A stretch of DNA of 32,000 bases. Source: Geobacter sulfurreducens PCA. Its GTDB lineage: Bacteria > Desulfobacterota > Desulfuromonadia > Geobacterales > Geobacteraceae. The position numbers and the translations under genes are program-made. Below are positions 7,467 through 32,000 of the stretch, piece by piece; positions within the stretch are counted from its first letter, which is position 1, and each line of letters opens with the position of its first letter. The stretch covers positions 720,001 to 752,000 of the forward strand of contig NC_002939.5 in NCBI RefSeq assembly GCF_000007985.2, written 5' to 3'. Under the pieces are notes generated by a model. The model did no database searches and was not told the origin of the DNA. It saw nothing but the letters and a program-made list of their open reading frames with translations.

Positions 7467-7694
7467 CTCGGCTCTGCTCCTTGGACAATGCATCTGAATA
7501 TCGGCCCGCCAACCGTGGGCAGCCAACAGCAATCGGTGTTTAATATCACAGATTTAACAAAAAAGACACCGTTTTCAATGGTTACTGACCTCCCTGCAAC
7601 GGCTGCCGCCGCTCCAGAGCTGCGGCACGAGACGATTGCACCCATCGGGGGGGCTATGGTATCGTGCCAAGGTTTTGACGTGTGGGGAGGATTC
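7467..7694. promoter_or_regulatory. Divergent shc / hpnN intergenic promoter region
   Basis: 228-bp non-coding gap between divergently oriented genes, with an AT-rich core (tttaatatcacagatttaacaaaaaagaca). No specific promoter boxes could be assigned with confidence. Confidence 0.4.
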
Positions 7695-10956: not shown

Positions 10957-10968
10957 GCGCCCCTCCCT

Positions 10969-11564: not shown

Positions 11565-11598
11565 GGATTGACCTCTTCATGTGGTGTTGCGGCCCGGT

Positions 11599-12519: not shown

Positions 12520-12561
12520 GTCTCCGTGTGCATCTGCTCGTAAAGGTTTATTAAAAAACCA

Positions 12562-12582
12562 GTAAACATTAAAATTGTTTAC
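12562..12582. promoter_or_regulatory. Palindromic candidate operator GTAAACA-N7-TGTTTAC
   Basis: Perfect 7-bp inverted arms (12562-12568 and 12576-12582) in the AT-rich divergent intergenic region between the pfkB operon and the histidine kinase gene. A related GTTACATTTG follows about 20 bp downstream. Confidence 0.35.
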
Positions 12583-12657
12583 ATTGTCGTCGCAATTCGG
12601 TTACATTTGCAAACTTATTCCATCCTGCCCTGATCAAATTCAAATCCGGAGCACTGA

Positions 12658-15813: not shown

Positions 15814-15943
15814 GATTGTTCCTCCGGCGGCGTCCGGTTCGCCGCCCGGTCAATGGTAGCAGAAGATCGGGGAAAAACAGAGAACCAAAATGGAGTACAA
15901 TTGTCTGGCAGCGCACTGCGAAAACCAGCGTGAGGGGGGTGTC

Positions 15944-16702
15944 ATGCCGCTCAAGGGAAAGGTTGCCGTAGTTACCGGGGGAGCCCAGGGAATCGGCAAG
16001 GCGGTCGTGAAGAAGCTGATGGAAAAGGGATGCGCCGTGGTCATGGCCGACACGGACTGGGAGGCCGGGGAGGAAACGGCCGCCGGGTTCGCCGGACTCG
16101 GCCGGGTCCTGTTCGTTCCCGCCGACGTGGGCCGGGAGGACGATGTCCGCGTGCTCGTGGAGCGGGCGGCGTCGCATTTCGGCAGGCTGGACATCCTGGT
16201 CTGCAATGCCGGCGTCTTCCGGAGCGTTCCCCTGGAGCACTGTTCCCTGGACGAATGGCAGAGGCTAATCGGCACCAATCTGACCGGCGCCTTTCTCTGC
16301 GCGAAGCACGCTGCACCGTTCCTGGCGTGCCACGGCGGCAGCATCGTCACCATCGCCTCCACCCGGGCATTCATGTCCGAGCCCGACACCGAGGCCTACG
16401 CCGCGTCCAAGGGGGGGCTGGTGGCGCTCACCCATGCCCTGGCCGTTTCCCTCGGCCCCGGCGTGCGGGTGAACTGCATCTCTCCCGGCTGGATCGAGAC
16501 CTGCGAGTGGCAGAAGGCGAGCCGTCGCCGGCCCGCGGCACATTCGGAGGAGGACCGGAGCCAGCACCCCGCCGGCCGGGTCGGCACGCCGGAGGATGTG
16601 GCATCCCTGGCGGCGTGGCTGGTCTCGCCCGAGGCGGGATTCGTCACCGGCGTCAATTTCGTGGTGGACGGGGGAATGACGCGGAAGATGGTGTACGTGT
16701 AA
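15944..16702 (+). CDS. Classical short-chain dehydrogenase/reductase
   Basis: 252 aa from the ATG at 15944, preceded by a GAGGGGGG RBS. TGGAQGIG cofactor motif, NAG, and catalytic YAASK. The 15890 start is an RBS-less extension. Confidence 0.9.
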   Translation: MPLKGKVAVVTGGAQGIGKAVVKKLMEKGCAVVMADTDWEAGEETAAGFAGLGRVLFVPADVGREDDVRVLVERAASHFGRLDILVCNAGVFRSVPLEHCSLDEWQRLIGTNLTGAFLCAKHAAPFLACHGGSIVTIASTRAFMSEPDTEAYAASKGGLVALTHALAVSLGPGVRVNCISPGWIETCEWQKASRRRPAAHSEEDRSQHPAGRVGTPEDVASLAAWLVSPEAGFVTGVNFVVDGGMTRKMVYV

Positions 16703-16705
16703 CTC

Positions 16706-17905
16706 TCAGCCGATTTCCACGATCTTTCCTCCCGGCAGGAGCCGGAAGAGGTTGCCGCGCCAGCGGACCCGGTTGCCGGCGAAGGAGAGGGCCCAGGTGG
16801 CGAAGGCGAGGATGTCGCGCAGGGGGAGGAGCCAGAGCCAGCGGGGGAAGATGCCGTCCCGCAGGTACCGGCGGCTGAAGGTAACGGCCACCAGGGCGCG
16901 GGTCAGGTAGAGGAGGATCACCGCCCCCCATCCGGCGGCGGAACAGCCCGACACCAGAAGTGCCAGGCAGGCCAGGGGAACGGGCTGGGTGATGCCCGAG
17001 CCCAGGTAGCCGCCGGGGCGCGAGGCCCGCATGGTGCGGCACCAGCGGAGCTGGCGGGAGAGGACCGTGGTCAGGTTCTCCCGGTGCATGACGCTCTCCA
17101 CGAAACAGTCCGACAGCTCCAGCCGCCAGCCGGCCCGGTGGATCTTGTTGCCCAGCTGGTAGTCGTCGGCCAGATAGTGGGTCAGGGCCGGGAAGCCGCC
17201 GATGGACTCCAGTGCCGTGCGCCGCACCGCCATGGAGGCGCCCAGGGCGAAGGAAAGCCCTTCGAGCCGTTGGGCGACCATGACGTTCGGCACCATCTCC
17301 ACTGTGAACCCCATGGCCTCCAGGGCCGTGGCGGCGCCCCGTACGCCGGGGCTCCGGTAGAGAGAGGTGACGAGCCCCACTGCCGGGTCGGCGAACGGCG
17401 CGGTCACCTCCCCCAGATAGTCGGACGTGACACGGATGTCGCTGTCGCAGACGATGAGGATGTCGTGCCTGGCCCTTGGGAAGGCGTTGATCAGGTTGGA
17501 GACCTTGTAGTTGGGGCCATGGATGGTGCCGTCCACCACCAGATCGATGTCACGGTCCGGAAACTCGGCCATGAGGCGCCGGATCACCGGAATGACCGGG
17601 TCGTCGGCCGAGGCGCAGGCAAAGAGCATCTGCCACGGCCCGCCGTACTCCTGGCGGCAGAAGGAGGCGAAGTTCTCGAAGCTCTCTGCGTCCATCCCCT
17701 TGACCGGCTTGAGGATGGTCACCGGCGGGGTGTGTCCCGGTCCGGGTCGCTGCCGGCCGAACCAGGCCCGGGCGCAGAAGAGTGCCAGGAGCCCGTAGGC
17801 CAGCGGCGGGAGAACGGCGAGGAGGGGAAGCAGGGTGTCGGGCGTCACGGGAACCTCTCTGCGGCGCGCCCCTAGTGTCCGGCGCGGCAGGGCTATTCTC
17901 TCCAT
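16706..17905 (-). CDS. Membrane glycosyltransferase, GT2/GT21 (ceramide glucosyltransferase / HpnI-like)
   Basis: N-terminal TM segment, VTILKPVKG start of the GT-A domain, DSD (CDSDIRV) metal motif, Q-x-x-RW-like motif (SRQLRWCRT), and C-terminal TM helices. The real start may be the GTG at 17848, which has a GAGAGG RBS 5 nt upstream. The ATG at 17905 has no RBS. Confidence 0.8.
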   Translation of the reverse strand: MERIALPRRTLGARRREVPVTPDTLLPLLAVLPPLAYGLLALFCARAWFGRQRPGPGHTPPVTILKPVKGMDAESFENFASFCRQEYGGPWQMLFACASADDPVIPVIRRLMAEFPDRDIDLVVDGTIHGPNYKVSNLINAFPRARHDILIVCDSDIRVTSDYLGEVTAPFADPAVGLVTSLYRSPGVRGAATALEAMGFTVEMVPNVMVAQRLEGLSFALGASMAVRRTALESIGGFPALTHYLADDYQLGNKIHRAGWRLELSDCFVESVMHRENLTTVLSRQLRWCRTMRASRPGGYLGSGITQPVPLACLALLVSGCSAAGWGAVILLYLTRALVAVTFSRRYLRDGIFPRWLWLLPLRDILAFATWALSFAGNRVRWRGNLFRLLPGGKIVEIG

Positions 17906-17956: not shown

Positions 17957-20218
17957 ATGCGTTGCACGGTATGCCGTTTTCGTTTACGATGCACCGGCAA
18001 TGAGCCGGGCTCAGCAGTTACGGTGCCGGTGCCACGGGAGCGGTCACGTTTGACTGATACGAACTCAGACATACGCATTGCCGGCATCGAGCCGGGTATT
18101 CTCTCCTCGTTCATCATCGAGCTGAATATCCTGAGGCGGGCGGTCTCGGCCTACCCGGAGGGGCATCCGGCCATCCGCTCCGCGGCGGAGAAGGTCGCCG
18201 GCCAGACGGACCTGCTCCTCGCCGGCGAGGGAAGCGCCACCATGGGCATCGCGCGCGACACCATCCTCTTCGGCGGCCACCCCCTGGACCGTCGGAACCT
18301 CGTGTTCCGTGACCTGGCACGGTTTCTCTCCGAGCGGGGGCTCACCCTGCTTACGGTGAAACGGGGCGTCTCCCCGGACGAACTGGTCCGGTTCTGCTCA
18401 CTGCTGGGTCTCCGGCGCGAGGAGATTCGCCAGCGGGGTGGCCTGGGGCGGATGATGACCGAAGCGGCTATCCTGGGGCTTGAGGTGACGGGGCTCGATT
18501 ACGGCCTGTTCCACGTAACCGAGGACGAGCGTGTTACGGCCCCATCGGCCGATCAGGACGATCTTTCACTCTGGGAGCGGTACGTGCGGGGGATGCTCGA
18601 TGGTACCCTGGACCCCTTCGGCACGGTGACCGAGCATCACGGCACTCTGGCGCCGGAGGAGCTGGCCCGGCTCATGAACGGCTGCCTCGCCGGCTCATCG
18701 GAAAACCGGCAGAAAAGTTACGACGCGGTCATCACCGCGTTTCTCCGCACCGTACGGGAGGCCGAGCAACATCCGGTGGGAGACGATAGTCAGACGGCCC
18801 GCCTGGCCGAGCTGGCCGAACTGCTCACCCCCGAGTTACGCCGCCAGTTTCTGGGCAGTACCTTTGCGTCCCTGGCGCGCCATCCTGCCATGGCGGAGCG
18901 GGTTGCCGCAGCCCTGTCCGACGGAGCGGTCATGGAGGCCTTTACGGGGCTGACCGAACGCGGCTCCTCCATCCCTGCCGTTCTGCTCGATCTCTTTCAG
19001 CGTTTCGGTTTGGCCGCCCCCTCCACTGCTGTCGGCCGGGCCCCATCGTCCCATCCCGCCGGGGCGGCGGAGATGGCGCGCCGGTTGGAAACCGTTCTGC
19101 GAGAAGGGGACAGCCGGGCCTTCGTTCCCCTGCCCTATGAGGAAGACCTCTCCCGTTTGACGCGAGCCGGGGTTCAACGGGCGGTGGCTCCCGAACTGGA
19201 GTCCCTGCGGCTGGAACTTGAATCGGAAAATGCTGCAGTCAAGGCGGGAGAGGTCATCATGGAAATCATCCGCCTGGAGCCTGACGGAGCCGACCCGTTT
19301 GCGTCGAACCTGGCAGAGCTTGCCGAGTACTACCTCGCCACCGGAGACTTCGGTTCACTGGGGGGACTGTTCCTGCGCATCCACGCCCTGGAAAAGGCCG
19401 GTGCCGGCGCTGCCCTGCGAGAGGCACTCGGCGCTCCGTCTTTCGCGGCTGCATTGATCGACGCGCCCGCCATCTGGGGAAAAGTGCGTTACGACGAGAT
19501 CCGGCAGATTATTTCGCAGCTCGGCTCCCCCTGTGTGACTCCCCTGCTTGACCGGCTGGCGGTGGAGGAGTCCATGACCCTCCGACGCTGGTACATGGAA
19601 TGCCTGATGGGGCTCGGCGACGCCGCCGGCGCTGCCGCCGTCGCCCTCCTGGAGGACGGCCGGTGGTACTTCGTGCGAAACCTCCTGATCCTTCTCCGGC
19701 AACTCGACTACTCGGCCGGCGCGGCACCCGCCAGAAAGCTGCTTGCGCATCCCCACCCCAAGGTACGTCAGGAGGCGGCCCGCACCCTGCTCAGGTTCCG
19801 CGACTCCCAGGCGGAGCAGTGGCTGCTCCGCGGGCTGGACAGCTCTGACCGCGAGACCCTGCTCATGGCGGTGCCGTTGGTGGACGGCAATGCGAGCCGG
19901 CGGGTCCGGGCTCAGTTGATCGAGCTTCTGCGGCGCGGCGGCGCTGCCGCCGATCCAGAGGTCCGCTGCGCCACGGTCCGGGCGCTGGCCGAGACGGGGG
20001 ATCCCGCAGCCCTGCCGGAGCTGACGCGCATTCTGGGCAGCAGGAGCCTGCTGCGCTCCGCGGCCCTCAATCAGGTGAAGCTGGAGGTGATCCGCTCGCT
20101 TCCCCGTTTCCCGGGGCAGGAGCCCCTGCGCCTGCTGCGCGATGCCGCCGCTACTGGTGGCGAAATCGCCGGTGCCGCGCGGGTCGCGCTCAGGCTCGCC
20201 GAAGCGAGGGACCGATGA
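17957..20218 (+). CDS. HEAT-repeat protein with an N-terminal domain paralogous to that of the downstream HD-GYP protein
   Basis: C-terminal HEAT/PBS-lyase-like repeats (HPHPKVRQEAARTLLRF..., DPEVRCATVRALAETGDPAALPEL). The start is uncertain; a TTG at 18050 with an upstream GGAG is an alternative. The stop overlaps the next start (ATGA at 20215-20218). Confidence 0.7.
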   Translation: MRCTVCRFRLRCTGNEPGSAVTVPVPRERSRLTDTNSDIRIAGIEPGILSSFIIELNILRRAVSAYPEGHPAIRSAAEKVAGQTDLLLAGEGSATMGIARDTILFGGHPLDRRNLVFRDLARFLSERGLTLLTVKRGVSPDELVRFCSLLGLRREEIRQRGGLGRMMTEAAILGLEVTGLDYGLFHVTEDERVTAPSADQDDLSLWERYVRGMLDGTLDPFGTVTEHHGTLAPEELARLMNGCLAGSSENRQKSYDAVITAFLRTVREAEQHPVGDDSQTARLAELAELLTPELRRQFLGSTFASLARHPAMAERVAAALSDGAVMEAFTGLTERGSSIPAVLLDLFQRFGLAAPSTAVGRAPSSHPAGAAEMARRLETVLREGDSRAFVPLPYEEDLSRLTRAGVQRAVAPELESLRLELESENAAVKAGEVIMEIIRLEPDGADPFASNLAELAEYYLATGDFGSLGGLFLRIHALEKAGAGAALREALGAPSFAAALIDAPAIWGKVRYDEIRQIISQLGSPCVTPLLDRLAVEESMTLRRWYMECLMGLGDAAGAAAVALLEDGRWYFVRNLLILLRQLDYSAGAAPARKLLAHPHPKVRQEAARTLLRFRDSQAEQWLLRGLDSSDRETLLMAVPLVDGNASRRVRAQLIELLRRGGAAADPEVRCATVRALAETGDPAALPELTRILGSRSLLRSAALNQVKLEVIRSLPRFPGQEPLRLLRDAAATGGEIAGAARVALRLAEARDR

Positions 20219-21330
20219 ACGAAGCGACGCGTCAACGGCTTCTCGGGGCACTCAGGTCGCTGGTCACGGCCATTTCCGGCGCCGCCCTCTACGCGGCCCG
20301 GCATCCCCGCGTCATCCTGCTGCGTTCCGAGGCGTTCACAGAGCTGTCGGCCGCCCTTGAGGCGGACGAGGCCCTGTCGCTGGTGGTCATCGATGGCGAG
20401 ATACTGGTGGAGGGCACGCCGCTTGACGGAGGGCTGTTTCTGCAACGCCTCGCGGGAATGCTCACGTCCCGGGGGATCGGGCACCTCAAGTTCCTGCGCG
20501 GCGTGACGGAAGAGGAGCTGGCGGCCCTGGCATCGATTCTCGCTGGGTCGGGAACGGCGGGTGGCGAGTTCCATTCGTCACCCCACGTGCGGTTCGGCCG
20601 GGTGGAGGTCCGCTATTCCGGGGGCACGGACGGCACCGGACACGCCTCGGGCCTGCCCGCCATGGAGATCGGCCGTTTTATGGAGCTGTACCAAGGGGTC
20701 GCCCGCCACCGGCGCAGCCATGTGACCGGCCTGGCCGATCTGGTGGCGGGCTTCATCACCGCCCTGCGCGAGCAGGCCAGTCCGCTGGCGGCCCTGGCCC
20801 CTTTGCGGGACGTTGACGAATATACATTCACCCACTCGGTGAACGTCTGTGTCCTCAATCTGGCCCAGGCCATGGCCCTGGGCATCGACGGGCCTCTCCT
20901 GCAGGAAATAGGCATTGCCGGCATGCTTCACGACATCGGCAAGATGTTCGTTCCCCCCGAGATACTCACCAAGCCGGGCCAGCTGGATGATGACGAATGG
21001 GCCGTCATGCGCCGCCATCCCCTCATGGGAGCCCGCTGTCTGGCTGAAACCCCCGGCGTGCCGCGGCTCGCAGTGGTTGCCACCTTCGAGCACCATCTAA
21101 AGCACGATCTCTCCGGCTATCCGTCCGTTGCCGCCGGCTGGCGCCAGAGTCTCTGCAGCGAGATGACGACCCTTTCGGACTTTTTCGATGCCCTGCGCAC
21201 CCGGCGCGCCTACCGCGACTCCATGGAACTCCGTCAGATAGCCGGCATCCTGCTGGAGAAGCGGGGCCGGGATTTCCATCCCCTCCTCACCCGCAATTTT
21301 CTGCTGGTCTTGAGCCGGCTTGCCGCCTAA
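20215..21330 (+). CDS. HD-GYP domain cyclic-dinucleotide phosphodiesterase
   Basis: 371 aa. HD motif GMLHDIGK, followed by HHLKHDLSGYP (the HHExxDGxGYP-type signature). A non-catalytic N-terminal domain of about 110 aa. Confidence 0.9.
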   Translation: MNEATRQRLLGALRSLVTAISGAALYAARHPRVILLRSEAFTELSAALEADEALSLVVIDGEILVEGTPLDGGLFLQRLAGMLTSRGIGHLKFLRGVTEEELAALASILAGSGTAGGEFHSSPHVRFGRVEVRYSGGTDGTGHASGLPAMEIGRFMELYQGVARHRRSHVTGLADLVAGFITALREQASPLAALAPLRDVDEYTFTHSVNVCVLNLAQAMALGIDGPLLQEIGIAGMLHDIGKMFVPPEILTKPGQLDDDEWAVMRRHPLMGARCLAETPGVPRLAVVATFEHHLKHDLSGYPSVAAGWRQSLCSEMTTLSDFFDALRTRRAYRDSMELRQIAGILLEKRGRDFHPLLTRNFLLVLSRLAA

Positions 21331-23240
21331 TCCCCCACCTTCAGCAGCGCCATACAGATGTCGTCGCCGGACGGCACTCCCCCCGTGAACATCCGCAGTC
21401 GTGTCAGAATGGCGTCGAGGAGTTCTTCCGGTTCGCGTCCGCTTTCCTCCTCCATGGCCCGGGCGAGCCTGGCCGTGCCGAAGAATTCCCCGTCCGCGCC
21501 GGTCGCCTCGGTGATGCCGTCGGTGTAGAGCAGAAGGATGTCTCCGGCGGCCATGGTGACTTCGTTCTGCTCATACTCCACGAGGGGATTGACGCCGAGG
21601 ATCAGCCCCTCCGCGTCAATCTGGCGGCATTCCCCCCGGCGGCGGCAGACCAGGGGAGGGCTGTGTCCGGCGCTGGCAAAGGCCAGAGTGTGGGTGGCGG
21701 GGGAGTAGGAGGCATAGAAGAGGGTTATGATGAGCTCCGCCCGGGACAGGTCTTCATGGAGCAGTGCATTGAGCGAACCGACGATCTGAGCGGGTGTTCC
21801 CCCCGCGTGGACCAGGGAGCGGATGACGCTCCGCAGTTCGGTCATGATAAGAGCCGCGCCGACGCTGTGGCCGGACACGTCAGCGATGACCAGGTCGAGT
21901 GAGCCGTCCTCCCGGGGGAAGAAATCGTAGTAATCGCCCCCCACGTGGGCGGCCGGCACCCAGCGCCCCGCGCACCGGCAACCCGGCACGGGCGGAGGCG
22001 TCTCCGGCAGCAGCGATCGCTGGATCTGGCGGGCCAGCTGCATGTCGCAGGCGAGCCGGGCATTCTCCAACAGCGCTTCCTGGGCCTGTTTCCGCTCGGC
22101 AATGTCCTGCTTGATGGCAATGAAGCAGCGGATGGCCCCGCGTTCGTCCCGCACCGGCGTGATGGTCTGCTCTTCCGGGTAGAGGGAGCCGTCCCGGCGC
22201 CGGTTGATCATCTCGCCGTGCCAGACCGTACCCGAGCGAATGGTGTGCCACAGATTGCGGTAGAACTCCTTACCGTGCACGCCGGAGTTGAGGATACCGA
22301 TGCCGCGGCCCGCCACCTCGTCCAGCAGGTAGCCGGTCAGGCGGGTGAAGGCGGGGTTGGCCCAGATTATCCTCCCCTCCGGGGCGCAGATGACGATGGC
22401 GTTGGCCGCCGCCTTCAGGGCCACGGTCTGAATCTGGCGGGTCAGTTCTCCTTCCTTGCGCTCGGTGATGTCGGCGATGAGTCCGTCGTAGGCCGTGAGC
22501 CGGCCCGTGTCGTCCCAGGTTGGGACGATGGTATTGCGCACCCAGCGGGTTTCACCGTCCTTGCGGACGATCCGGTGCTCGAGGGTCACCACCCCCTTCT
22601 TTGCCTCCAGCCGGGCGATGCTGGCCAGCACCCGGTCCCGGTCTTCGCCGTGGATCATCTCGTACCAGAGGGTGGGGCGGGTATTGTATTCGTCGCTCGT
22701 GTAGCCGGTCACGGGCAGGCACCCCTGGCCGTGGGAGGTGCGGATCACGTGCCCTTCCGCCAATTCCACGGTGTAGGTGTAGTTGGACACGGCGGCCACC
22801 AGCCGCCGGTACCGTTCCTCGCTCCGGGCCAGGGCCTGTTCGGCCTCCCGGCGCTTGCGGCGCACTTCCGCCTCCTGCAGTTCGCGGGCGATGGCAGGCA
22901 CCAGCCGGGAGGTGCTTCCCTTGATGAGGTAGTCGTTGGCGCCCGCCTTCATGGCGGCCACCGCCGTTTCCTCGCCGATTTTGCCCGACACCACGATGAA
23001 CGGCAGATCCTCCTCCCGCTCCCGCCAGAGCCGCAGCGCGTCCATGCCGCTGAAGCGGGGGAGGACGTAGTCCGAGAGGGCCAGATCCCAGTCCCGCGCC
23101 GCCATGGCCGCAACCATCTCGGCGGCGGTCTCCACCCGCACATGATCAGGCTCGTATCCCCCCTTGCGGAGTTCCCGCAGCACCAACAGCATGTCGTCTT
23201 CGGAGTCTTCGATGATCAGAACGCGGAGTGGAATGCCCAT
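21327..23240 (-). CDS. Response regulator with REC, two PAS domains and a PP2C/SpoIIE phosphatase domain
   Basis: 637 aa from the ATG at 23240, with an AGGAGG RBS 7 nt upstream. REC motifs LIIEDSEDD...LALSDYVLP...; PAS/PAC modules; SpoIIE motifs GGDYYDFF, VIADVSGHS, LLLYTDGITEA. Confidence 0.9.
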   Translation of the reverse strand: MGIPLRVLIIEDSEDDMLLVLRELRKGGYEPDHVRVETAAEMVAAMAARDWDLALSDYVLPRFSGMDALRLWREREEDLPFIVVSGKIGEETAVAAMKAGANDYLIKGSTSRLVPAIARELQEAEVRRKRREAEQALARSEERYRRLVAAVSNYTYTVELAEGHVIRTSHGQGCLPVTGYTSDEYNTRPTLWYEMIHGEDRDRVLASIARLEAKKGVVTLEHRIVRKDGETRWVRNTIVPTWDDTGRLTAYDGLIADITERKEGELTRQIQTVALKAAANAIVICAPEGRIIWANPAFTRLTGYLLDEVAGRGIGILNSGVHGKEFYRNLWHTIRSGTVWHGEMINRRRDGSLYPEEQTITPVRDERGAIRCFIAIKQDIAERKQAQEALLENARLACDMQLARQIQRSLLPETPPPVPGCRCAGRWVPAAHVGGDYYDFFPREDGSLDLVIADVSGHSVGAALIMTELRSVIRSLVHAGGTPAQIVGSLNALLHEDLSRAELIITLFYASYSPATHTLAFASAGHSPPLVCRRRGECRQIDAEGLILGVNPLVEYEQNEVTMAAGDILLLYTDGITEATGADGEFFGTARLARAMEEESGREPEELLDAILTRLRMFTGGVPSGDDICMALLKVGD

Positions 23241-23434
23241 GGCGTGCCTCCTGGTGCCCTGTCCCGGAGATAACGTCCCGGTTTCATAGTGTACTACGGG
23301 TTGCAGGTGGGGCAAGAAGGAGGCGTCGACGGGCGAAAAAAATCAGTGCCTCCACAAATGCGTTCAAGAAAATTTCCGTTATGCCGAAAAGAGTTACATG
23401 AGTTGAGACTATGTTATTGGCACTGGAGAACATC

Positions 23435-24718
23435 ATGAAATCATTGCAGGCGGGGTGTGTATCTGCGGTACTGGCGGCCATCTGTATTGCGACGCCGGCC
23501 GGGGCCTTCCATTCGGGCGGTGCGGCCCAGTGCGAGGGGTGCCACACCATGCACAATACAAGCGAAGGCGCCGCCATGACCGGGTCGAGCGCCCGCTTTC
23601 AGAGCGGCCCGTTTCTTCTCAGAGGATCGGACCAGAGCTCAGCCTGCCTCAACTGCCATCAGCAGGCCGGAGACACCGGTCCCACCTCGTATCATGTTTC
23701 CACTGCCGAAAATGACATGCCCGTGGGGTCGCCGCCGTTGCAGCTCACCCCCGGCGGCGATTTCGGCTGGCTGAAAAAATCCTATTCCTGGGCTCCCGCG
23801 CCGGGCTCAGCCTCGGTGGAGATTCGCGGCGAACAGCATGGTCACAACATTGTCGCCGCCGACTTTAACTATGTGGCAGACACCACAAATATCAACGCTC
23901 CGGGAAGCTCCACTCCCTATCCGTCCGACAGCCTCCACTGTTCCAGCTGCCACGATCCGCACGGCGCGTACCGCATTGTGGAGAACGGGGTTCAGGCCAC
24001 GAGCGGCAAGCCGATCAGGGGGGCCGGCTCCTACGGCTCCCTCCCCGACGCAGGTTCCGCCGTGGGTACGTATCGACTCCTGGCGGGGGTCGGCTACAAA
24101 CCCAAGTCCCTGGCCGGCGGCCCGGCCTTTACCCACGCAGCGCCTTTTGCGGTGGCGCCCGTCGTCTACAACCGGTCCGAAGAATCCAGCGACACCCGCG
24201 TTTCCTACGGCAAGGGGACTTCTGCCTGGTGCACCAACTGCCATGCCCTCATGCATTCTGCCCCCGGTTCTTCGCTTCACCCGGCCGACAAACAGCTCGG
24301 CGACGTGGCCCAGACCTACAATGCCTACCGCAAGACGGGCAGCCTGGACGGCACTGTGGCTACGGCCTATCTGTCGCTTGTCCCGTTTGAGCTGGGGGAT
24401 GTGACCGACCTGACGGCCCTCAAGGATGCAATCGCCACCACCGCCGGTCCGGCCGCAACGGACAAGGTGTCGTGTCTTTCCTGCCACCGTGCCCACGCCT
24501 CCGGCTTCAGCCATATGACGCGGTTCGCCATCGACTCCAACCACATTACCGTGGCCGATGCCTCCGGCAATGCCATCTGGCCCGATCCGGTCATGAACCC
24601 CTCCCAGGCCCAGGGCCGGACCGTGGCCGAGACCCGGCAGGCATACTACGGGAGGCATCCGCAGGCGTTTTCTCCCTACCAGCGCGTGCTCTGCAACAAG
24701 TGCCACGCCAGGGACTGA
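23435..24718 (+). CDS. omcJ: OmcS-family hexahaem c-type cytochrome (OmcS paralogue, probably OmcJ)
   Basis: 427 aa from the ATG at 23435, with a GGAG RBS 6 nt upstream. Signal peptide ...ATPAGA|FHSGG. Six CXXCH motifs (CEGCH, CLNCH, CSSCH, CTNCH, CLSCH, CNKCH). It is collinear with OmcS as I remember it (FHSGG..CEGCHTMHN, CLNCHQ.AGDTGP.SYH.ST, TPGGDFGW.KK, GHNIVA.D.NYVADTT, LHCSSCHDPHG, CLSCHRAHASGF, PYQR.LCNKCHA.D). The gene symbol rests on my recollection of the G. sulfurreducens locus. Confidence 0.9.
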   Translation: MKSLQAGCVSAVLAAICIATPAGAFHSGGAAQCEGCHTMHNTSEGAAMTGSSARFQSGPFLLRGSDQSSACLNCHQQAGDTGPTSYHVSTAENDMPVGSPPLQLTPGGDFGWLKKSYSWAPAPGSASVEIRGEQHGHNIVAADFNYVADTTNINAPGSSTPYPSDSLHCSSCHDPHGAYRIVENGVQATSGKPIRGAGSYGSLPDAGSAVGTYRLLAGVGYKPKSLAGGPAFTHAAPFAVAPVVYNRSEESSDTRVSYGKGTSAWCTNCHALMHSAPGSSLHPADKQLGDVAQTYNAYRKTGSLDGTVATAYLSLVPFELGDVTDLTALKDAIATTAGPAATDKVSCLSCHRAHASGFSHMTRFAIDSNHITVADASGNAIWPDPVMNPSQAQGRTVAETRQAYYGRHPQAFSPYQRVLCNKCHARD

Positions 24719-24797: not shown

Positions 24798-25199
24798 GCC
24801 GCTGATGCACGTCCGGAAGTGCTCGCCCCCCCTCGCTCAACCACCTTCCCGAAACCTCCGCTCCTTCGTACCCGCTGAAAACACAAGGAAATAAACAAAA
24901 GCAGTGCAATTAAGGGGAGATGGATATTAAACTGCATCACCTGCGGTTACTTTGTATTTATTAAATTTTTGTCACATATTGGTATTCAATTTGCTGCTTT
25001 ATGAATAGCTTTGATGGGTACGTGGGGTGTTGGCAATGGGTGCATAGTGAAACTGATTGATTTCATTGTGAACTGTTGTTTTCGGAAGGCTGTTGCCAAT
25101 CGGTATTATGTCGTGATTTTGACTTTTGGTGCGTCGAGTGTCGGTTATTTAACGTAATACTCACATGGTATCACTGTGGTTGTGGGTAGTGAGGTTACT
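24798..25199 (+). promoter_or_regulatory. AT-rich promoter/leader region of the giant cytochrome gene
   Basis: A non-coding gap of about 400 bp. By my count 24941-25000 is 17/60 G+C, in a window that is otherwise GC-rich. It contains a spaced repeat TGTTGGCAATGG (25028-25039) / TGTTGCCAATCGG (25091-25103). A GAGG RBS at 25191-25194 precedes the GTG at 25200. Confidence 0.5.
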
Positions 25200-28100
25200 G
25201 TGAATACGCGATCTTGGAAAATGCTGATGATGTGGTGCTCCGTGATGTTTGTGGGTATTTCGCCGGTCCTGACCGGCGTGGACGAAGTCCGGGCAGCCAT
25301 CCAGTGCTATCAGTGCCACGGAACCGCGGCAACCAGTGACTATCGCCCGGAAGACAGCGCGTTCCGCGCTATCTCCACCGGAGGATTCAAGGGAAATCAC
25401 CGGACTCACATGGCAAGCAGCGCCACGGCAAACAGCTGCACGATCTGCCACGGCACGAGCGGCTACCAGGCAAGCCATCGCGACGGTACCATTGCCATAG
25501 CTTCCAACATTAATGCGTCACCGGCCGTCGGAACCTACAGTCGCGGCACGTCCTTCGCCCAGAGCGCCTCGGTGGTGCCGGGTACCTGCAGCAACGTCAA
25601 CTGCCACTTTGAAACCGTGACGCCGGCCTGGGGCAGCACGCCCCTTGCCTCCACCGCCGATTGCGGTACGTGCCATGGCAGCGCGCCGGCCACCGGCAGC
25701 CATCCCGTCGGGGGGAGCAAGCACGGCGCCTATTACGGGACCGGAACCTCTTCGTGTGGCACATGCCATCCCGACCATGGGGCCAAGGAGGGTACAGCCC
25801 GTTTTGCCCATGCCACCAGTGTCGGTCGGGACTTGCAGGTCAGCTTCGCTGCCGCGCCGAACAGCGGCAGCGGCAGCTATTCCGGGCCGGTAAACGATTA
25901 CCTGCCGAGTCAGAGCAATGTCTTCGGCACCTGTTCCGGCACATACTGTCACAGCCCCGGCACCAAGTCGTCGGCATTCGACGCCCCGAACCAGTCCGCA
26001 GCCTGGGGGGGGAGCCTGGCCTGCAACGGATGCCACAAGTCCGACCGTTCCTCGGGCACGGCCATGACCAGCGGCAGCCACCGCGCCCATGTGGACGGCT
26101 TTGGGCTGGGCTATGCCACGGTCAGGTGCGTCAGGTGTCACGGTGCCACCGTAACCTCGGCCATGGCCATCGGCACCTACGGCAATCATGTTAACAAGCT
26201 GGTCAACGTGGCGTTCGACAGCACCACCACGGCGAAGAACGGCACGTACGGCGGGGTGTCGTCTCCCATGACCAAAGCGCCGGGGAGTGCCTACGGCAGC
26301 TGCACCAACGTCTACTGCCACTCCAGCGGCCAGGGGAACAGCGGCAGCTGGCCGCCGACCTATACGACTCCCACCTGGGGCTCCGCCGCAACGGGGCAGT
26401 GCGGCACCTGCCACGGCATCAACGGCGATACCCACAGCGGTTACGGCACACCGACCATCATGACTTCGGGCAGCCACACCAGGCACCTGGCCTATTCCTT
26501 CGGTATTACCAGCGACGAAACCCGCTGCGCGACCTGCCACGCCACCACCCTGACCGGATTCACCCCCACGGTCTGCAGCTCCTCGGTCTGTCATAACCAG
26601 ATCAGCCAGAAGCACGCCAATTATGAAGTCAATGTGGGATTCCCCGACTACTACGGCGCCACCGCTGCCTACGGCGGCACACCGAAGCCGGGTGACGGCT
26701 ACGGCTCGTGCACGAATATCTACTGTCACAGCGATGGCCGGGACACCCTCCACTACGCCCAGACCCCCCTGACTTGGGGCGGCGCGTCCCTGGGCTGCAC
26801 CGGCTGCCACGGGAGTGCCACGGCGCCTCAAAACGGCAGCGGCGGCACCACCCTGTCGGGCAAGCATGCCGTCCACGTGAATAATGCGGCGATCTTCGGC
26901 ACCAATAACAGCCTGGGGTGCGTCCAGTGCCACAACAGAACCGTCAGCGACAACAGTACGCTCCTTGGGACCACCGGCACCCAGTACCATGTCAACAAGA
27001 CCCGCGACTACTATGGGACCATGGCCGGCAGCTACAACTCCGGCACCAAGGTCTGCAGTAACGTGTACTGCCACAGTTCGGGCCAGGCCACACCGGTCTA
27101 CCGGACCGTGGCCGCCTGGACCAGCGCCACCGGCTACGGCTGCAACAGTTGCCACGGGGCCGACAGCGCCTTCACGGCAGCGGCCGGCGAGCCCAACTAT
27201 GCCAACGGCGGCGCCGGAACGGCCACGGCCAACAGTCACCAGCGCCACGTAGCAAGCCTCGGCATTACTGCCACCACCGGCTGCGCCGCCTGCCACTGCC
27301 GGACCGTTGACGCAACCGTTACCAACAAGCTGCGTAACTACTCGACCCTGCACCTGAACCAGGCGCGCAACGTGGCCATGAAGGCCATCAACGGCAAGTC
27401 CGGAACCTACGACAGCAATGCCAAGACGTGTTCGGCCACCTACTGTCACGGCACCTCACCGTCACCGGCCTGGGGCGGATCTACCGCCTGCAACTCGTGT
27501 CACAGCGCCCGGGCCACCGATGCCCACTGGGCAGCCAACTCCGCCCATAAGATCCACTGGGAGGGATCCGTCCTGCCCTCTTCGTATGCCATGACCCCGG
27601 GCAATGGCACCGGCGATGCGGCCACCTACCGGTTTGCCTGCTCGTCCTGCCATTCCCCCTCCGGAGGCTCAGCCCATGCCGGCGGCGCCTTGGCGGCAAG
27701 CCAGGCGGCCCAGGTCTATTTCGGTTACTCCGCGGCAGGCGTGCGCGGCAGCTACACGGGAACCGGCACGGCCTACAGCAATGACAACGGATTCAACTGG
27801 ACCGCCGGATCCTCCGGCTGTACCGCCACGTACTGTCACTCCGGCGGCGCCGGTCAGGCCGGTCGTTCGGCCGTTGCCTGGAGCACCAGCGCCAAAACCT
27901 CCTACAACTGCAACCTGTGCCACGGTAATGCCGCTGCACCCAACAACGACTGGCGGCGTGGCGCCCCCCTCTATGCCTCCGGCTCCATCACCTACAAGGG
28001 CCAGGCGAAGGGGAACGCCCATGGTGCTCACATAAGCGCACAGACCAGCCTCTCTGCCGTCTACATGCAGTGCGCCCACTGTCACGGAGCCACGACCGCC

Positions 28101-30926
28101 ACAAGCACCGCCATCAGCGACAAGCGCAAGCACCTGAACAAATCCTACGATGTCTCCGCCGGCGGCACCTTCCGGGACGGGGACAACACCGCCAACTCGA
28201 CGGCGGTCACTATCGCTTACAGCTACAACGTTGCAGGGAGCAGCTGCTCCAACGTCTCCTGCCATCCGGTGGGCCTCGACGTGACCACCACGCCGTCCAC
28301 GCCGCTGACGCGGTCCACCAGCACGGCTGCGTGGAACAGCTCCTACAAATGCACCGACTGCCACCGCATCCCGATGCAGGATACCGATACCTACCATCAT
28401 GCCATGTATGACTACGGCCGGACGTATCCGACCACAATCCCCGACGGCAGCGCCACCAGCGGCACCAATTACACCAGCCGGACCTGCACCATGTGCCATG
28501 TGGACCACACGATCTTCAGCCCCGATCTCAACGTCAACAGTGCCGGCCGGTCCTACAACCTGAGGACCGCCATCGGCTCAACGCCCACCACGACGGCAAA
28601 CTTCACCAATTCCGACTACAGCGCATCCGGCGGCGGTATCTGCATCAGCTGCCATTCCACGGAGCGAACCAAATCCACGGTACGGCGCAAACAGGAAACC
28701 AACGCCACCAAAACACCGCCTGTCACCTTGGCCAACTACTCCGGTTCCGCCCATCAGTACAATGTGCCGGCCAGCTTCTTCAGCGATGGCAGCCGGTTCC
28801 AGGGCAACTGCTCCAAGTGTCACAACGCCCTGGTCAACGAGACGTCGGTATTCATGAGCTATACCGGCTCCGGCGACTCGTTCGGCAATCACAACAGCGG
28901 CATCAGGCGGCTTCAGGGCTCCCTCGGCGCAACAGGCGGCGAGGTGGCTGAAGAGCAGATCTGCTACCGTTGCCATAGCCTGTCCAGCGATGCCGACCCG
29001 GGGGGCGGCCCGCCCAAGGCGGTCGCCAACAAGGATTACTACGGGGTGGCACCCATGAGCCTGGCGTCCCAGGACATCTTTGCTGCCAACCGTGACTTCC
29101 GGGCCGCGAACCCGACGTACAGCCTCACCAACAAGCTGTATTTCAAGCCGGCCGCGGCCGAGACACCTGCTGAGGCCATGCCGAATCAGCACAACACCGG
29201 CGATTCCTTCAGCGGCGGCACGTGGGTCGGCCGCGTCATGTCCCCCTGGGAGACCACGGTTACCTATGAAACAAAGAGCCAGGGCACCAACCTGGAGGGC
29301 ACCAGCTACTGGCGCATGGTCACCTTTACCTCGCCCGCGGTCTACAGCACCACTACCGTCCCCGCCGGCAACTGGATCATCAACCTCTACTGCCGCGAGT
29401 CGTCCACCGCCCAGAACGCCAGGGTCAGGTACATGGTCTACAAGTGGAACAACCCCGCCGATACCATGGGAGCCACCATCATCGCCAAGGGGACCTATGC
29501 CACCGAGCTTTCCACTGCGGGAGCCCCCGGTACCGTACGCCAGATACCGGTGAGCGTGGGTACCCTCACCCTCAACGCGGGGGAGAAGATCGTGGTCGAT
29601 CTTTCGCTGGAGACGACCACCACGAGCACCAACGGCTATACCGCGTCATTTTACTTCGGCAGCCGCGCACCCAGCGAGCTGACGCTCCCCGGCAGCGTGG
29701 CCTGGACCTACGCCGACCCGGGCGCCCCAGGTTACGGCCACGCAACCCAGCACTATTCAGGGATCCATCTCCCCTCGCGTCAGAATGAAACCCTGGCCTA
29801 TATCGCCCAAAACAGGCACATCGAGTGCGTGGACTGCCACAACCCCCATGCGACCCGCAACGGGCTCCACGGCGACTACGGAATCGCCACCGGCGGAAGT
29901 TCCACCACCCTGGTCAACAGCAACAAGAACTGGGTGCCCAACCAGTGGGTCGGCGATTATATCAACATCATTTCAGGCACCGGCGCCGGCCAGACGGCCA
30001 CCATCAGCGGCAATAACGCGACCACCGTTACCGTGGCCGGGTGGACTGCGCCGGCCAGCGGCAGCGTTTACCGGATCATCGCCAACAATAATGCGGTGTC
30101 CCGGAGCCAGCGCGGCGTGTCCGGCGCCAGTGTAAGCTATTCCGGGGCCTGGACCAACGGCACCTATACCATGGTAAGCGAGGCCGCCTACGAGTACCAG
30201 ATCTGCTTCAAGTGCCATGCCGCCACCAATCCGACCACCAATACGCTACGCTACTGGAACGTAACCTCGCCGTCGTTGGGGGCGGCCCGTTGGACCAACA
30301 TCGGCCTGGAGTTCAACCCCAACAATGCCTCATACCACCCGGTGATCCAGCCATTGCCATCCACCGGCAACCGGCGGCTGCAGGCGACCGCCCTGACCGG
30401 CGGCTGGCAGCCGGGCGAGGTGATGACCTGCTCCGACTGCCACGGCAGGGATACCAGCACCTCCGCCACGGCCCAGGGCCCCCATGGTTCGACCGTCAAA
30501 TGGCTGCTGACGGGCATGTATCAGAACTGGCCCTTCACTTCAGCGGCGGCCAACGGTACCTCATCCGGCGGGACCCTGCTGACCGGAACGGGCACCGCGA
30601 CGCCTCCGGCCAACAACTTCTGCTTCAACTGCCACACCTGGGCCGCCGGCGGCAACGGTCACGTCAAGTCGTCGGGCGGGCACAGCAGGCCCTGCGTCAA
30701 CTGCCACATTCGGGTTCCCCACGGGGGCAAGGTGCCGCGCCTCCTGACCGGGGCCAATGCCCCATCCCGTTACAAGCCCGACGGCAACGGCGGCGCCTTT
30801 TCCGGTTCCTACCTGACCAGCGCCATCCTGCCGGCCAGCGGCTATATGGGGGCCAACAATGTCAGCTGTTCCTCCATCTGTGGGGCAAGGCACACGGACA
30901 ACAGCATAAAGGCCTATTCCTGGTGA
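25200..30926 (+). CDS. Giant secreted multihaem c-type cytochrome (26 CXXCH + 9 CX4CH motifs)
   Basis: 1,908 aa from the GTG at 25200, with a GAGG RBS 5 nt upstream. The listed 25176 start adds 8 aa. Signal peptide: NTRSWKMLMMWCSVMFVGISPVLTGVDEVRA|A. Motifs were counted by hand in the translation. The repeated CxxxxCH...W...CXXCH unit is the Geobacter-type domain (TIGR01904, as I recall). Confidence 0.9.
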   Translation: MNTRSWKMLMMWCSVMFVGISPVLTGVDEVRAAIQCYQCHGTAATSDYRPEDSAFRAISTGGFKGNHRTHMASSATANSCTICHGTSGYQASHRDGTIAIASNINASPAVGTYSRGTSFAQSASVVPGTCSNVNCHFETVTPAWGSTPLASTADCGTCHGSAPATGSHPVGGSKHGAYYGTGTSSCGTCHPDHGAKEGTARFAHATSVGRDLQVSFAAAPNSGSGSYSGPVNDYLPSQSNVFGTCSGTYCHSPGTKSSAFDAPNQSAAWGGSLACNGCHKSDRSSGTAMTSGSHRAHVDGFGLGYATVRCVRCHGATVTSAMAIGTYGNHVNKLVNVAFDSTTTAKNGTYGGVSSPMTKAPGSAYGSCTNVYCHSSGQGNSGSWPPTYTTPTWGSAATGQCGTCHGINGDTHSGYGTPTIMTSGSHTRHLAYSFGITSDETRCATCHATTLTGFTPTVCSSSVCHNQISQKHANYEVNVGFPDYYGATAAYGGTPKPGDGYGSCTNIYCHSDGRDTLHYAQTPLTWGGASLGCTGCHGSATAPQNGSGGTTLSGKHAVHVNNAAIFGTNNSLGCVQCHNRTVSDNSTLLGTTGTQYHVNKTRDYYGTMAGSYNSGTKVCSNVYCHSSGQATPVYRTVAAWTSATGYGCNSCHGADSAFTAAAGEPNYANGGAGTATANSHQRHVASLGITATTGCAACHCRTVDATVTNKLRNYSTLHLNQARNVAMKAINGKSGTYDSNAKTCSATYCHGTSPSPAWGGSTACNSCHSARATDAHWAANSAHKIHWEGSVLPSSYAMTPGNGTGDAATYRFACSSCHSPSGGSAHAGGALAASQAAQVYFGYSAAGVRGSYTGTGTAYSNDNGFNWTAGSSGCTATYCHSGGAGQAGRSAVAWSTSAKTSYNCNLCHGNAAAPNNDWRRGAPLYASGSITYKGQAKGNAHGAHISAQTSLSAVYMQCAHCHGATTATSTAISDKRKHLNKSYDVSAGGTFRDGDNTANSTAVTIAYSYNVAGSSCSNVSCHPVGLDVTTTPSTPLTRSTSTAAWNSSYKCTDCHRIPMQDTDTYHHAMYDYGRTYPTTIPDGSATSGTNYTSRTCTMCHVDHTIFSPDLNVNSAGRSYNLRTAIGSTPTTTANFTNSDYSASGGGICISCHSTERTKSTVRRKQETNATKTPPVTLANYSGSAHQYNVPASFFSDGSRFQGNCSKCHNALVNETSVFMSYTGSGDSFGNHNSGIRRLQGSLGATGGEVAEEQICYRCHSLSSDADPGGGPPKAVANKDYYGVAPMSLASQDIFAANRDFRAANPTYSLTNKLYFKPAAAETPAEAMPNQHNTGDSFSGGTWVGRVMSPWETTVTYETKSQGTNLEGTSYWRMVTFTSPAVYSTTTVPAGNWIINLYCRESSTAQNARVRYMVYKWNNPADTMGATIIAKGTYATELSTAGAPGTVRQIPVSVGTLTLNAGEKIVVDLSLETTTTSTNGYTASFYFGSRAPSELTLPGSVAWTYADPGAPGYGHATQHYSGIHLPSRQNETLAYIAQNRHIECVDCHNPHATRNGLHGDYGIATGGSSTTLVNSNKNWVPNQWVGDYINIISGTGAGQTATISGNNATTVTVAGWTAPASGSVYRIIANNNAVSRSQRGVSGASVSYSGAWTNGTYTMVSEAAYEYQICFKCHAATNPTTNTLRYWNVTSPSLGAARWTNIGLEFNPNNASYHPVIQPLPSTGNRRLQATALTGGWQPGEVMTCSDCHGRDTSTSATAQGPHGSTVKWLLTGMYQNWPFTSAAANGTSSGGTLLTGTGTATPPANNFCFNCHTWAAGGNGHVKSSGGHSRPCVNCHIRVPHGGKVPRLLTGANAPSRYKPDGNGGAFSGSYLTSAILPASGYMGANNVSCSSICGARHTDNSIKAYSW
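25587..28364 (+). repeat. Eight tandem, diverged protein-level modules (CX4CH - W - CXXCH - CXXCH) inside the giant cytochrome
   Basis: The first Cys of the CX4CH motifs falls at ORF residues 138, 253, 376, 512, 627, 752, 882 and 1024, a period of 115-142 aa. Each motif (C[ST]x[VT]xCH) is followed 13-28 aa later by W-[GTSN] and a CxxCH. In seven of the eight modules a second CXXCH follows the first by 21-50 aa (the eighth has only CTDCH). One extra CX4CH (CSSSVCH) is at 467. Confidence 0.8.
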
Positions 30927-31540
30927 TGGGGTACGGGTACGGTGGATATCCCGACCGGGCGATGCCCGGGGGAGGCGGGAGGAGTGCCGGCACCTCCGGG
31001 GGGGTGCGTGTCGGCATGATCCTGCTGGCGGTTGTGCTGGCAGTTTGCTCTGCCTGCGCCGGGGGCGATACCGGCGAGGTCGAGGCGACCATTCGCCGCT
31101 ACAATGACCTGCTGGTCCAGGGCTACCGGGCCCAGAACATGAATCCCCTCGTGGAAGTCACCACCCATGAGCACGCGCTGAAACTCTATCACCACATGGC
31201 CGCCCTCGGCGAGGGCCAGCTGCGGATGGAGTCGAAGCTCAAGAGGATCAGGTTCCTGAATATCGAACGGCGCGGCAATTCCGAGGCGACGGTGGAAACG
31301 GAGGAAACCTGGGACTTCACCCATTACCGGATGGCCACTAACGAAAAATACGCCGAGGAAAAAGACTTCATTTACCGGATGGGGTATGTCCTGAACAAAG
31401 AAAACGGCCGCTGGCTCATCACCGGGGTGAACACCATCAGCGGCACCAGCACCAATAACGTGGTCCCCTGGCCGGTGCTGGACCGCAAGGGGAGGGTCGT
31501 CAATCAGGCGCCCGGCGGCGCCCAGGGACGGCACCCCTGA
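30926..31540 (+). CDS. Membrane-anchored or lipoprotein-like protein of unknown function
   Basis: Same frame as listed ORF 30212..31540. A candidate ATG at 30926 overlaps the cytochrome stop (TGATG). Alternative starts are ATG 30962, GTG 31004 and ATG 31016. One hydrophobic segment (MILLAVVLAVCSACAGG), then a soluble domain of about 160 aa with alternating alpha/beta character (NTF2-like guess only). Confidence 0.6.
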   Translation: MGYGYGGYPDRAMPGGGGRSAGTSGGVRVGMILLAVVLAVCSACAGGDTGEVEATIRRYNDLLVQGYRAQNMNPLVEVTTHEHALKLYHHMAALGEGQLRMESKLKRIRFLNIERRGNSEATVETEETWDFTHYRMATNEKYAEEKDFIYRMGYVLNKENGRWLITGVNTISGTSTNNVVPWPVLDRKGRVVNQAPGGAQGRHP

Positions 31541-31542
31541 CC

Positions 31543-32000
31543 ATGGAGCGGATCAAGCGGTTTTTCCTGGCACGCGGCACGGTCATCAGTTTCATTCTCC
31601 TGGCACTCTGTGCCATCACCCTGGCAGCGTTCATTCCCCAGCGCTTCCTGACCTCGCCCGAAGAGATGCTGGCGTGGCAGTCGGCCTACCCGCTGTTCGC
31701 CCGCTGGAGTAGCCTGCTGGGCCTCCATCACATCTATACACATCCCGGCTTTGCCCTTATCCTTGCCGGGGGGACGATTTCCCTTGCCTTTTCGACCAGG
31801 AATCAGGCGCTTACCGCGTGGCAGCGCACCGTGCGCCCCGCCGGCGGTACAGCCGGGGACCGGCGCTTTTCCGTCGCCCGAGCGCCGGCGGAGGTTTCCC
31901 GCCTCCTGATGACCAACGGGTTCATCGGTCAGGGCATATTCGATGGGGAAATCCGGCTGGTGCGCCACCCCTGGGGGTACTGGGGCAATACTCTGCTCCA
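31543..32000 (+). CDS. resB: ResB/Ccs1 (CcsB)-type System II cytochrome c biogenesis protein, N-terminal part (runs off the window)
   Basis: Not in the ORF track because no stop is reached. My translation from the ATG at 31543 gives MERIKRFFLARGTVISFILLALCAITLAAFIPQRF...LLGLHHIYTHPGFALILAGGTISLAFS...LVRHPWGYWGNTLL. The TM1-IPQ motif, the LGL..IY..P.F TM2 motif and the HPWGYWG motif match my memory of the ResB family. It starts 2 nt after the upstream stop. Confidence 0.8.
   Translation, partial: MERIKRFFLARGTVISFILLALCAITLAAFIPQRFLTSPEEMLAWQSAYPLFARWSSLLGLHHIYTHPGFALILAGGTISLAFSTRNQALTAWQRTVRPAGGTAGDRRFSVARAPAEVSRLLMTNGFIGQGIFDGEIRLVRHPWGYWGNTLL

Follow-up and report, generated by a model that had tools for sequence, protein, structure and literature searches.

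Near its 3′ end, the window analysed here (32,000 nucleotides of Geobacter sulfurreducens PCA, contig NC_002939.5, positions 720,001 to 752,000 of the forward strand) enters a group of four closely spaced genes on one strand, GSU0702 to GSU0705. These genes encode a giant multihaem c-type cytochrome (GSU0702), a small predicted lipoprotein (GSU0703), and the two subunits of a System II cytochrome c synthase, ResB/CcsB (GSU0704) and CcsA/ResC (GSU0705). The favoured explanation, to which a probability of roughly 0.55 is assigned, is that GSU0703-GSU0705 form an accessory System II module that is co-expressed with GSU0702 and helps to mature cytochromes of the GSU0702 family, general cytochrome c synthesis being left to another pair, GSU0613-0614. 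The location of the genes suggests the co-expression, and we further infer that the pair may be dedicated to GSU0702, that GSU0703 may take part in the process, and that haem may be attached at the unusual CX4CH motifs of the cytochrome.

The 152-residue fragment of GSU0704 that lies inside the window scores 17.9 bits on the Pfam ResB family (PF05140), under the cut-off of 24.6, so the ResB call is weak on the letters of the window alone. The rest of the gene was read from a public contig (L001), retrieved by exact look-up of the GSU0703 protein and 100% identical to the window over positions 30900-32000 (1,101 nucleotides compared). Positions 10618-11946 of this contig encode the full-length ResB of 442 residues, identical to GenBank AAR34034.1, which passes PF05140 at 47.2 bits and ends at about 32871 in extended window coordinates. 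The next gene, ccsA, encodes a 276-residue protein scoring 137 bits on PF01578, and its start overlaps the end of resB by 8 nucleotides. A preliminary description made from the letters of the window had proposed a ResB-like gene at this position and expected a ResC/CcsA partner just past the window, and both were found. Exact-sequence matches to AAR34031.1, AAR34033.1, AAR34034.1, and AAR34035.1, annotated as cytochrome c, “lipoprotein, putative”, ResB, and CcsA, correspond to GSU0701, GSU0703, GSU0704, and GSU0705, respectively. Beyond ccsA, the contig switches to the opposite strand, with genes for an MFS transporter, two SMR proteins, and a KAP NTPase, so the co-directional block stops with ccsA.

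The residues expected of a System II synthase are retained in both subunits. GSU0705 matches two CcsBA structures, 7s9y and 25vk, at an E-value of about 1e-16, its WWD motif (WGRYWGWDPVETW) is intact, and among 33 homologues His136 is conserved in 100%, His233 in 97%, and His271 in 97%; it therefore possesses the WWD motif, the two periplasmic histidines, and the transmembrane histidine of the CcsA/ResC family. ResB His153 is invariant in 35 homologues, and its counterpart in the alignment with the fused CcsBA structure 25vk is a histidine (FH) of the CcsB portion. The hydrophobic segments of ResB (residues 13-31, 150-168, and 368-386, the second and third being about 200 residues apart) fit, by hydropathy, the usual CcsB layout of N-terminal transmembrane helices, a large periplasmic domain, and a C-terminal transmembrane helix. 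GSU0704 thus combines the family-model score, the transmembrane histidine, and the adjoining CcsA partner of the ResB/CcsB family, and judged by gene identity and by their intact predicted catalytic residues the two proteins are a genuine System II pair. GSU0705 reaches 148.6 bits on TIGR03144, the housekeeping CcsA equivalog, below its cut-off of 187.6, and no NCBIfam model matched GSU0704, so both proteins appear to be divergent paralogues. The accessory CcsA clade also carries a near-invariant W..GHGPY...E loop at residues 60-73, with His65 conserved in 97%; the 25vk sequence aligned to this loop reads “eraPwanayE”, the extra histidine being typical of the accessory clade. GSU0704 is also listed in a table of PMC3495685, in the section on single-nucleotide polymorphisms between strains PCA and KN400.

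These features bear on the idea that the pair is mainly a haem exporter or homeostasis device, or is inactive. The ResB Pfam score is low (47 bits), and a model for such a function exists in GSU3283, one of the five ResC/HemX-like proteins of this genome, which is encoded within a haem biosynthesis cluster and lacks a ResB partner (PMC2700814). However, GSU0704/0705 conserve the WWD motif and the four haem-ligand histidines, the ResB partner is present, and the genes to which the pair is linked encode cytochromes and not haem biosynthesis enzymes, which leaves this explanation very improbable.

The count of paralogues was taken from the literature. Aklujkar et al. (2009, BMC Microbiol 9:109; PMC2700814) described four ResB-like and five ResC-like genes, each ResB-like gene being paired with a ResC-like gene and with multihaem cytochrome genes in both Geobacter genomes compared. 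Their “gene cluster 4” (Table S5) consists of GSU0701 (omcJ), GSU0702, GSU0703, GSU0704 (ResB-like), and GSU0705 (ResC/HemX-like), and the authors hypothesised that each ResB/ResC pair is dedicated to the cytochromes encoded nearby. Both the locus and the notion of a dedicated pair have therefore been known since 2009. GSU0613-0614 are named as essential cytochrome biosynthesis genes on the basis of transposon sequencing data, according to the passage of the preprint bioRxiv 10.1101/2022.08.12.503762 in which those data are cited. Because four ResB and five ResC genes exist and GSU0613-0614 is the pair reported essential, GSU0704/0705 is an accessory, non-housekeeping pair and not the sole System II synthase of the genome; a sole, housekeeping pair was the outcome that the preliminary description had named as fatal to its proposal. 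An extra paralogue, besides a general synthase, is thus genetically linked to the gene of its putative substrate, as is expected of a dedicated lyase.

The presumed substrate, GSU0702, contains 26 CXXCH and 9 CX4CH motifs, in agreement with the 35 motifs reported previously for this window. It matches TIGR01904 (CxxxxCH/CxxCH-domain cytochrome) at 215 bits in eight repeats and PF09698 at 85 bits, and shows the repeated domain, with CX4CH followed by CXXCH, that characterises CxxxxCH/CXXCH-domain cytochromes. The repeat unit of about 125 residues comprises one CX4CH and two CXXCH motifs together with an invariant Tyr and Trp; eight of the nine CX4CH sites fall in these repeats, and their Cys and His are invariant across all eight aligned units. 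About three more semi-conserved histidines are found per unit, and three haem motifs with three extra histidines would fit three bis-His haems per unit; as regards CX4CH being haem sites, these repeat-unit residues are suggestive only. The eight tandem units occupy positions 25515-28550 of the window (residues 114-1125), or the N-terminal 60% of the protein, which looks like a chain of triheme modules, and the C-terminal 650 residues hold few haem motifs and long stretches devoid of them. A sequence search of the PDB returned no relatives of GSU0702 and hence no structural evidence on haem at CX4CH, and an AlphaFold2 model of one triheme unit, built from an eight-row alignment of the internal repeats, reached a pLDDT (predicted local distance difference test) of 43 and was discarded. 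The literature searched contained no demonstration of haem at the CX4CH sites of CxxxxCH/CXXCH-domain cytochromes. Published haem counts are ambiguous for several large cytochromes of G. sulfurreducens, namely OmcN (27-34), OmcA (24-27), OmcH (19-24), OmcG (14-18), and GSU0702 itself (26-35; PMC2700814, Table S5), to which no function has been assigned. The ambiguity stems from the CX4CH motifs, and all five proteins are encoded in clusters with accessory ResB/ResC pairs.

The linkage between such cytochromes and ResB-CcsA pairs extends well beyond this genome. When genomes were scanned with a profile built from GSU0704 homologues, 29 loci were obtained, about 35 related loci being considered in all, from Geobacteraceae, Geomonas, Geoanaerobacter, Nitrospirota, Desulfobulbales, Thermodesulfovibrionia, and Coriobacteriia; their open reading frames (ORFs) were annotated with phmmer and with a hidden Markov model of the eight GSU0702 repeats. 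CcsA directly follows ResB in 28 of the 29 loci. The exception (L007, 10001-15526), from a Geobacteraceae metagenome-assembled genome, encodes a ResB that is 61% identical, with a cytochrome and a lipoprotein upstream and an SMC-like gene next, and reflects either gene loss or mis-assembly. Large multihaem cytochromes adjoin ResB on the same strand almost always, and ResB-CcsA keeps its linkage to giant multihaem cytochromes from species to species and in different phyla. In a bootstrapped neighbour-joining tree, the subclade of GSU0704 (clade A) was supported by 190 of 200 replicates (95%), and a CxxxxCH-domain cytochrome stands directly upstream in all eight clade A loci with enough upstream sequence. 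The sister subclade (clade B; 195/200), with loci from Geobacter genomes, adjoins cytochromes in which every motif is canonical (proteins with 22-25 haems and with 7 haems), and pairs of both clades share one contig (L013). More distant ResB members stand beside a 1,869-residue protein with 33 CXXCH motifs (L031), a 1,968-residue protein (L029), or 7-haem proteins. No odd motif (CXnCH with n = 1-20, or CXXCK) recurs in the cytochromes beside these distant members, so the linkage is not accounted for by an unusual motif common to them. CxxxxCH-domain cytochromes are also found next to other ResB lineages, in G. metallireducens (L036), in G. pickeringii (L034), and at locus L028.

This distribution is informative about motif specificity. 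The preliminary description had suggested that this ResB copy is specialised for the nine CX4CH sites, by analogy with NrfI and CcsA1 of Wolinella succinogenes; those precedents are real (review, PMC12285233), and the analogy is valid as a working model. In its strict form, the suggestion means that GSU0704/0705 is needed for haem at CX4CH only and that the housekeeping pair handles CXXCH. It draws on the nine CX4CH motifs of GSU0702, eight of them in TIGR01904 repeats with an invariant C-x4-C-H, on the upstream cytochromes of all eight testable clade A loci, and on the clustering of every ambiguous-haem-count large cytochrome of G. sulfurreducens with accessory pairs. However, the same three-gene module occurs beside giant cytochromes without CX4CH or any other odd motif (L031, L029, L030, and L020), the Desulfobulbales module adjoins 7-haem proteins that also lack such motifs, and at least three ResB lineages (clade A, L036, and L034) flank CxxxxCH-domain cytochromes. 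Moreover, two of five sampled cytochromes of this type have no ResB nearby, and haem occupancy of CX4CH gains no support from PDB relatives or from the repeat-unit model. In addition, the CX4CH sites of Desulfovibrio cytochrome c3 are not known to depend on a dedicated lyase. Strict motif specificity is therefore unlikely, and synthases matched to a cytochrome family fit the observations better. The expected co-occurrence with CX4CH-repeat cytochromes held in the eight testable clade A loci and gave a mixed picture outside clade A, and the accessory nature of the pair and its linkage to the giant cytochrome stood. The general idea of a dedicated pair is not new, having been published already; no paper in the literature searched ties Geobacter CX4CH to a dedicated synthase.

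A different explanation is that GSU0704/0705 is a spare, equivalent System II synthase that arose through duplication of cytochrome clusters, with no substrate preference, at most some extra capacity to offer, and a position that is merely historical. Aklujkar et al. derived both GSU0704-0705 and GSU2881.1-2880 by expansion of ancestral genes (PMC2700814), G. metallireducens and related genomes gather several pairs in a single supercluster, the catalytic residues are all canonical, and the L007 locus, with ResB but without CcsA, hints that the pair can be dispensed with. However, the split between the ResB clades is old and deep (28-48% identity; bootstrap 95-97%), and the type of neighbouring cytochrome is characteristic of each clade, also where the two occur together on one contig. 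The module, lipoprotein included, also lies beside large cytochromes in Nitrospirota, Desulfobulbales, and Coriobacteriia, and its conservation in such distant phyla is hard to explain without selection for the linkage. Furthermore, GSU0613-0614 is reported essential although three other pairs are present, which, as far as the cited passage of the preprint goes, indicates that the paralogues do not substitute for GSU0613-0614 under laboratory conditions. Simple redundancy is accordingly regarded as improbable, about as much so as strict motif specificity.

Several observations weigh against a dedicated module. On the cytochrome side, five CxxxxCH-domain cytochrome loci were sampled; ResB is in the cluster in three (G. 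pickeringii, G. metallireducens, and Geomesophilobacter), and the other two (Geomonas paludis and G. argillaceus; loci L035 and L038) have no ResB within 10 kb, so a neighbouring ResB is not a strict requirement. The abundance of cytochrome genes in Geobacter genomes also makes adjacency by chance more likely, and the co-location could reflect mere block duplication of cytochrome clusters. Homologues of GSU0703 are absent from about 30% of the ResB loci. Promoter and terminator scans of the gene cluster gave counts close to shuffle expectation, with hits within coding sequence and no convincing intergenic terminator, and do not settle co-transcription. Finally, the literature searched yielded no study of the function of GSU0703-GSU0705 and no phenotype or expression data for GSU0704/0705.

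The third gene of the proposed accessory module, GSU0703, is represented by a RefSeq model of 204 residues and by the original GenBank version of 174 residues (AAR34033.1), which differ in the start. Its homologues (74 clusters in a word-indexed search; 744 representatives at E <= 1e-3 in a full profile search) are about 150-200 residues long and begin directly at a short signal peptide with a near-invariant lipobox Cys at its end. The Gly- and Tyr-rich stretch that opens the 204-residue model (26-30 codons; MGYGYGGYPDRAMPGGGGRSAGTSGG...) is not conserved among them. Because the homologues start at the signal peptide and the N-terminal extension is unconserved, the true start is probably GTG 31004 or ATG 31016, 78-90 nucleotides downstream; a start at GTG 31004 gives MRVGMILLAVVLAVCSAC, a typical lipoprotein signal peptide. 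The preliminary description had placed the three genes with essentially no intergenic space, the TGA stop of GSU0702 (30924-30926) and the ATG at 30926 forming a TGATG overlap with the second ORF, whose stop at 31540 is 2 nucleotides short of the next ATG at 31543. The shared strand, the close spacing, and the 2-nucleotide gap before GSU0704 hold, but the TGATG overlap was rejected as a firm feature and is likely an artefact of the unconserved extension; with the downstream start, a gap of 77-89 nucleotides would follow the cytochrome. The reading of GSU0703 as a small membrane protein was likewise rejected, since its sole hydrophobic stretch is the lipoprotein signal peptide and the remainder is modelled as soluble.

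The AlphaFold2 model of GSU0703 (pLDDT 89) is a cone-shaped alpha+beta structure of NTF2-like appearance. In a Foldseek search with this model, the best matches were the intermembrane-space NTF2-like domain of ARC6/PARC6 (E 5e-6) and the C-terminal domain of Tim44, and ARC6/PARC6, Tim44, and scytalone dehydratase together spanned E-values of 5e-6 to 1e-3. No Pfam family covers the protein above threshold; PF25155 (21.5 bits, cut-off 25) and PF13355 (19.4 bits, cut-off 22.8) were matched below their cut-offs. GSU0703 can thus be described as a predicted lipoprotein with a modelled NTF2-like fold. The invariant residues of the family include Tyr29, Met42, Tyr58, Met61, Glu66, and Trp99, with His60 nearly invariant, and these could be ligand-binding. 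Three family members of 312-333 residues (P0308, P0311, and P0323) contain two profile matches each and represent a tandem-duplicated domain.

Of the 30 ResB genes flanked by 1 kb or more of sequence on each side, 21 have a homologue of GSU0703 within 3 kb; for all 35 ResB genes the figure is 24. Relative to the ResB-CcsA pair, the homologue is upstream in 10 cases, separates resB from ccsA in 2, and lies downstream in 12. Two distant homologues both belong to a gene block that also holds a giant CxxxxCH-domain cytochrome and the ResB-CcsA pair. What is new here is this uncharacterised NTF2-like lipoprotein family, consistently linked with accessory ResB-CcsA, in shuffled gene order and in several phyla.

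By homology with CcsBA, ResB and CcsA would form a membrane complex. Haem would move from a transmembrane histidine site, made up of ResB His153 and CcsA His233, to the WWD site on the periplasmic side, where CcsA His136 and His271 flank it. There, each haem-binding motif of the apoprotein, exported by the Sec route, would receive its haem through bonds between the vinyl groups and the Cys thiols. GSU0703, at the periplasmic face, could bind apocytochrome or haem or serve as their chaperone. A bolder and quite tentative proposal, possible but some way short of probable, is that the NTF2-like lipoprotein is the third component of a ResB-CcsA-lipoprotein branch of System II that co-evolved with particular families of giant cytochromes and that, in the GSU0704 subclade, may be required for CxxxxCH/CXXCH units including their CX4CH sites. 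If correct, a pathway regarded as completely catalogued would gain a new accessory factor, and there would be a first handle on the maturation of proteins with more than 30 haems, the loading of dozens of haems onto one polypeptide of about 2,000 residues being a poorly understood process. Interest in the giant cytochromes of Geobacter, which have no assigned function, comes from extracellular electron transfer. Should the accessory pairs and the lipoprotein truly be matched to their substrates, they would be needed for making such cytochromes in other hosts, and the Wolinella model, in which each odd motif has a lyase of its own, would be extended to a second lineage. The added value of this analysis is comparative, and lies in ResB clades with their own cytochrome partners, a linked lipoprotein family, and a reduced likelihood of strict CX4CH specificity.

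The features of the locus and of the remaining window are collected in Table 1. The start of GSU0702 was placed by gene callers at about 25221-25227, and the spacing between GSU0701 and GSU0702 is about 500 nucleotides. Positions 1319-17905 form a hopanoid biosynthesis neighbourhood unrelated to the cytochrome cluster, and within it two ORFs overlap on opposite strands, 2342-4321 (+, 659 residues, without a Pfam match) and 2402-4339 (-, 645 residues). The region 17957-23315, directly 5′ of the cytochrome genes, includes a 753-residue HEAT-repeat protein, and its HEAT-repeat, HD-GYP, and response-regulator genes are possible regulators of the cytochrome cluster.

Table 1. Coordinates of the proposed cytochrome maturation locus and of other genes of the window.
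Feature	Position	Strand	Remarks
GSU0701 (OmcJ), 6-haem cytochrome	23411..24718	+	6 CXXCH motifs; AAR34031.1 “cytochrome C”
GSU0702, giant multihaem c-type cytochrome, presumed substrate	25176..30926	+	longest ORF 1,916 residues
GSU0703, small predicted lipoprotein, candidate third component of the synthase module	30926..31540	+	WP_235044962.1 (204 residues)
GSU0704, ResB/CcsB-type System II subunit	31543..32000	+	152 of 442 codons inside the window
GSU0705, CcsA/ResC	L001 11939-12769, about 32864-33694 in extended window coordinates		outside the window, after GSU0704
Radical SAM/DUF3463 protein, HpnH-like	1319-2317	-	
Squalene-hopene cyclase	5427-7532	-	
MMPL transporter	7488-10394		
HpnI glycosyltransferase	16706-17905	-	TIGR03472 at 506 bits
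HD-GYP-type protein	20215-21330		
Response regulator with PAS and SpoIIE-type phosphatase domains	21327-23315	-	

Comparison with known systems places the locus as follows. GSU0703 resembles the ARC6/PARC6 intermembrane-space and Tim44 C-terminal domains in its predicted NTF2-like cone, with a target-normalised TM-score of up to 0.82, and its weak Pfam matches are to ARC6-like_IMS and NTF2_YvbJ, below their cut-offs. However, sequence identity is only 13-16%, and GSU0703 is a bacterial lipoprotein in another cellular context, so that function is not transferable. The published “cytochrome c biogenesis gene cluster 4” (GSU0701-GSU0705) is the same locus, with identical proteins in the same gene order; in that work, based on two genomes only, the pairs were not connected to CX4CH, and GSU0703 was given no role, although its homologues Gmet_0574 and Gmet_0593 were noted in G. 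metallireducens clusters (PMC2700814). As in System II of Bacillus subtilis (ResB/ResC), of Bordetella and plastids (CcsB/CcsA), and of Helicobacter hepaticus (CcsBA, PDB 7S9Y/7S9Z), GSU0704/0705 match PF05140 and PF01578, keep the WWD motif with two periplasmic and two transmembrane histidines, and follow the order resB then ccsA with overlapping ends. In contrast to typical System II, the ResB subunit is short (442 residues) and divergent, the CcsA subunit falls under the TIGR03144 cut-off, and the pair is one of four and not the one reported essential; unlike described systems, it usually travels with an NTF2-like lipoprotein gene. The closest parallel is Wolinella succinogenes, in which NrfI (for the CXXCK of NrfA) and CcsA1 (for the CX15CH of MccA) are likewise extra paralogues beside a multihaem cytochrome with a non-canonical motif. 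The Wolinella enzymes are fused CcsBA proteins of genetically proven specificity, whereas GSU0704/0705 are separate subunits of putative specificity, and, unlike in Wolinella, the odd motif occurs nine times per substrate in GSU0702 and relatives of GSU0704 flank cytochromes with canonical motifs only.

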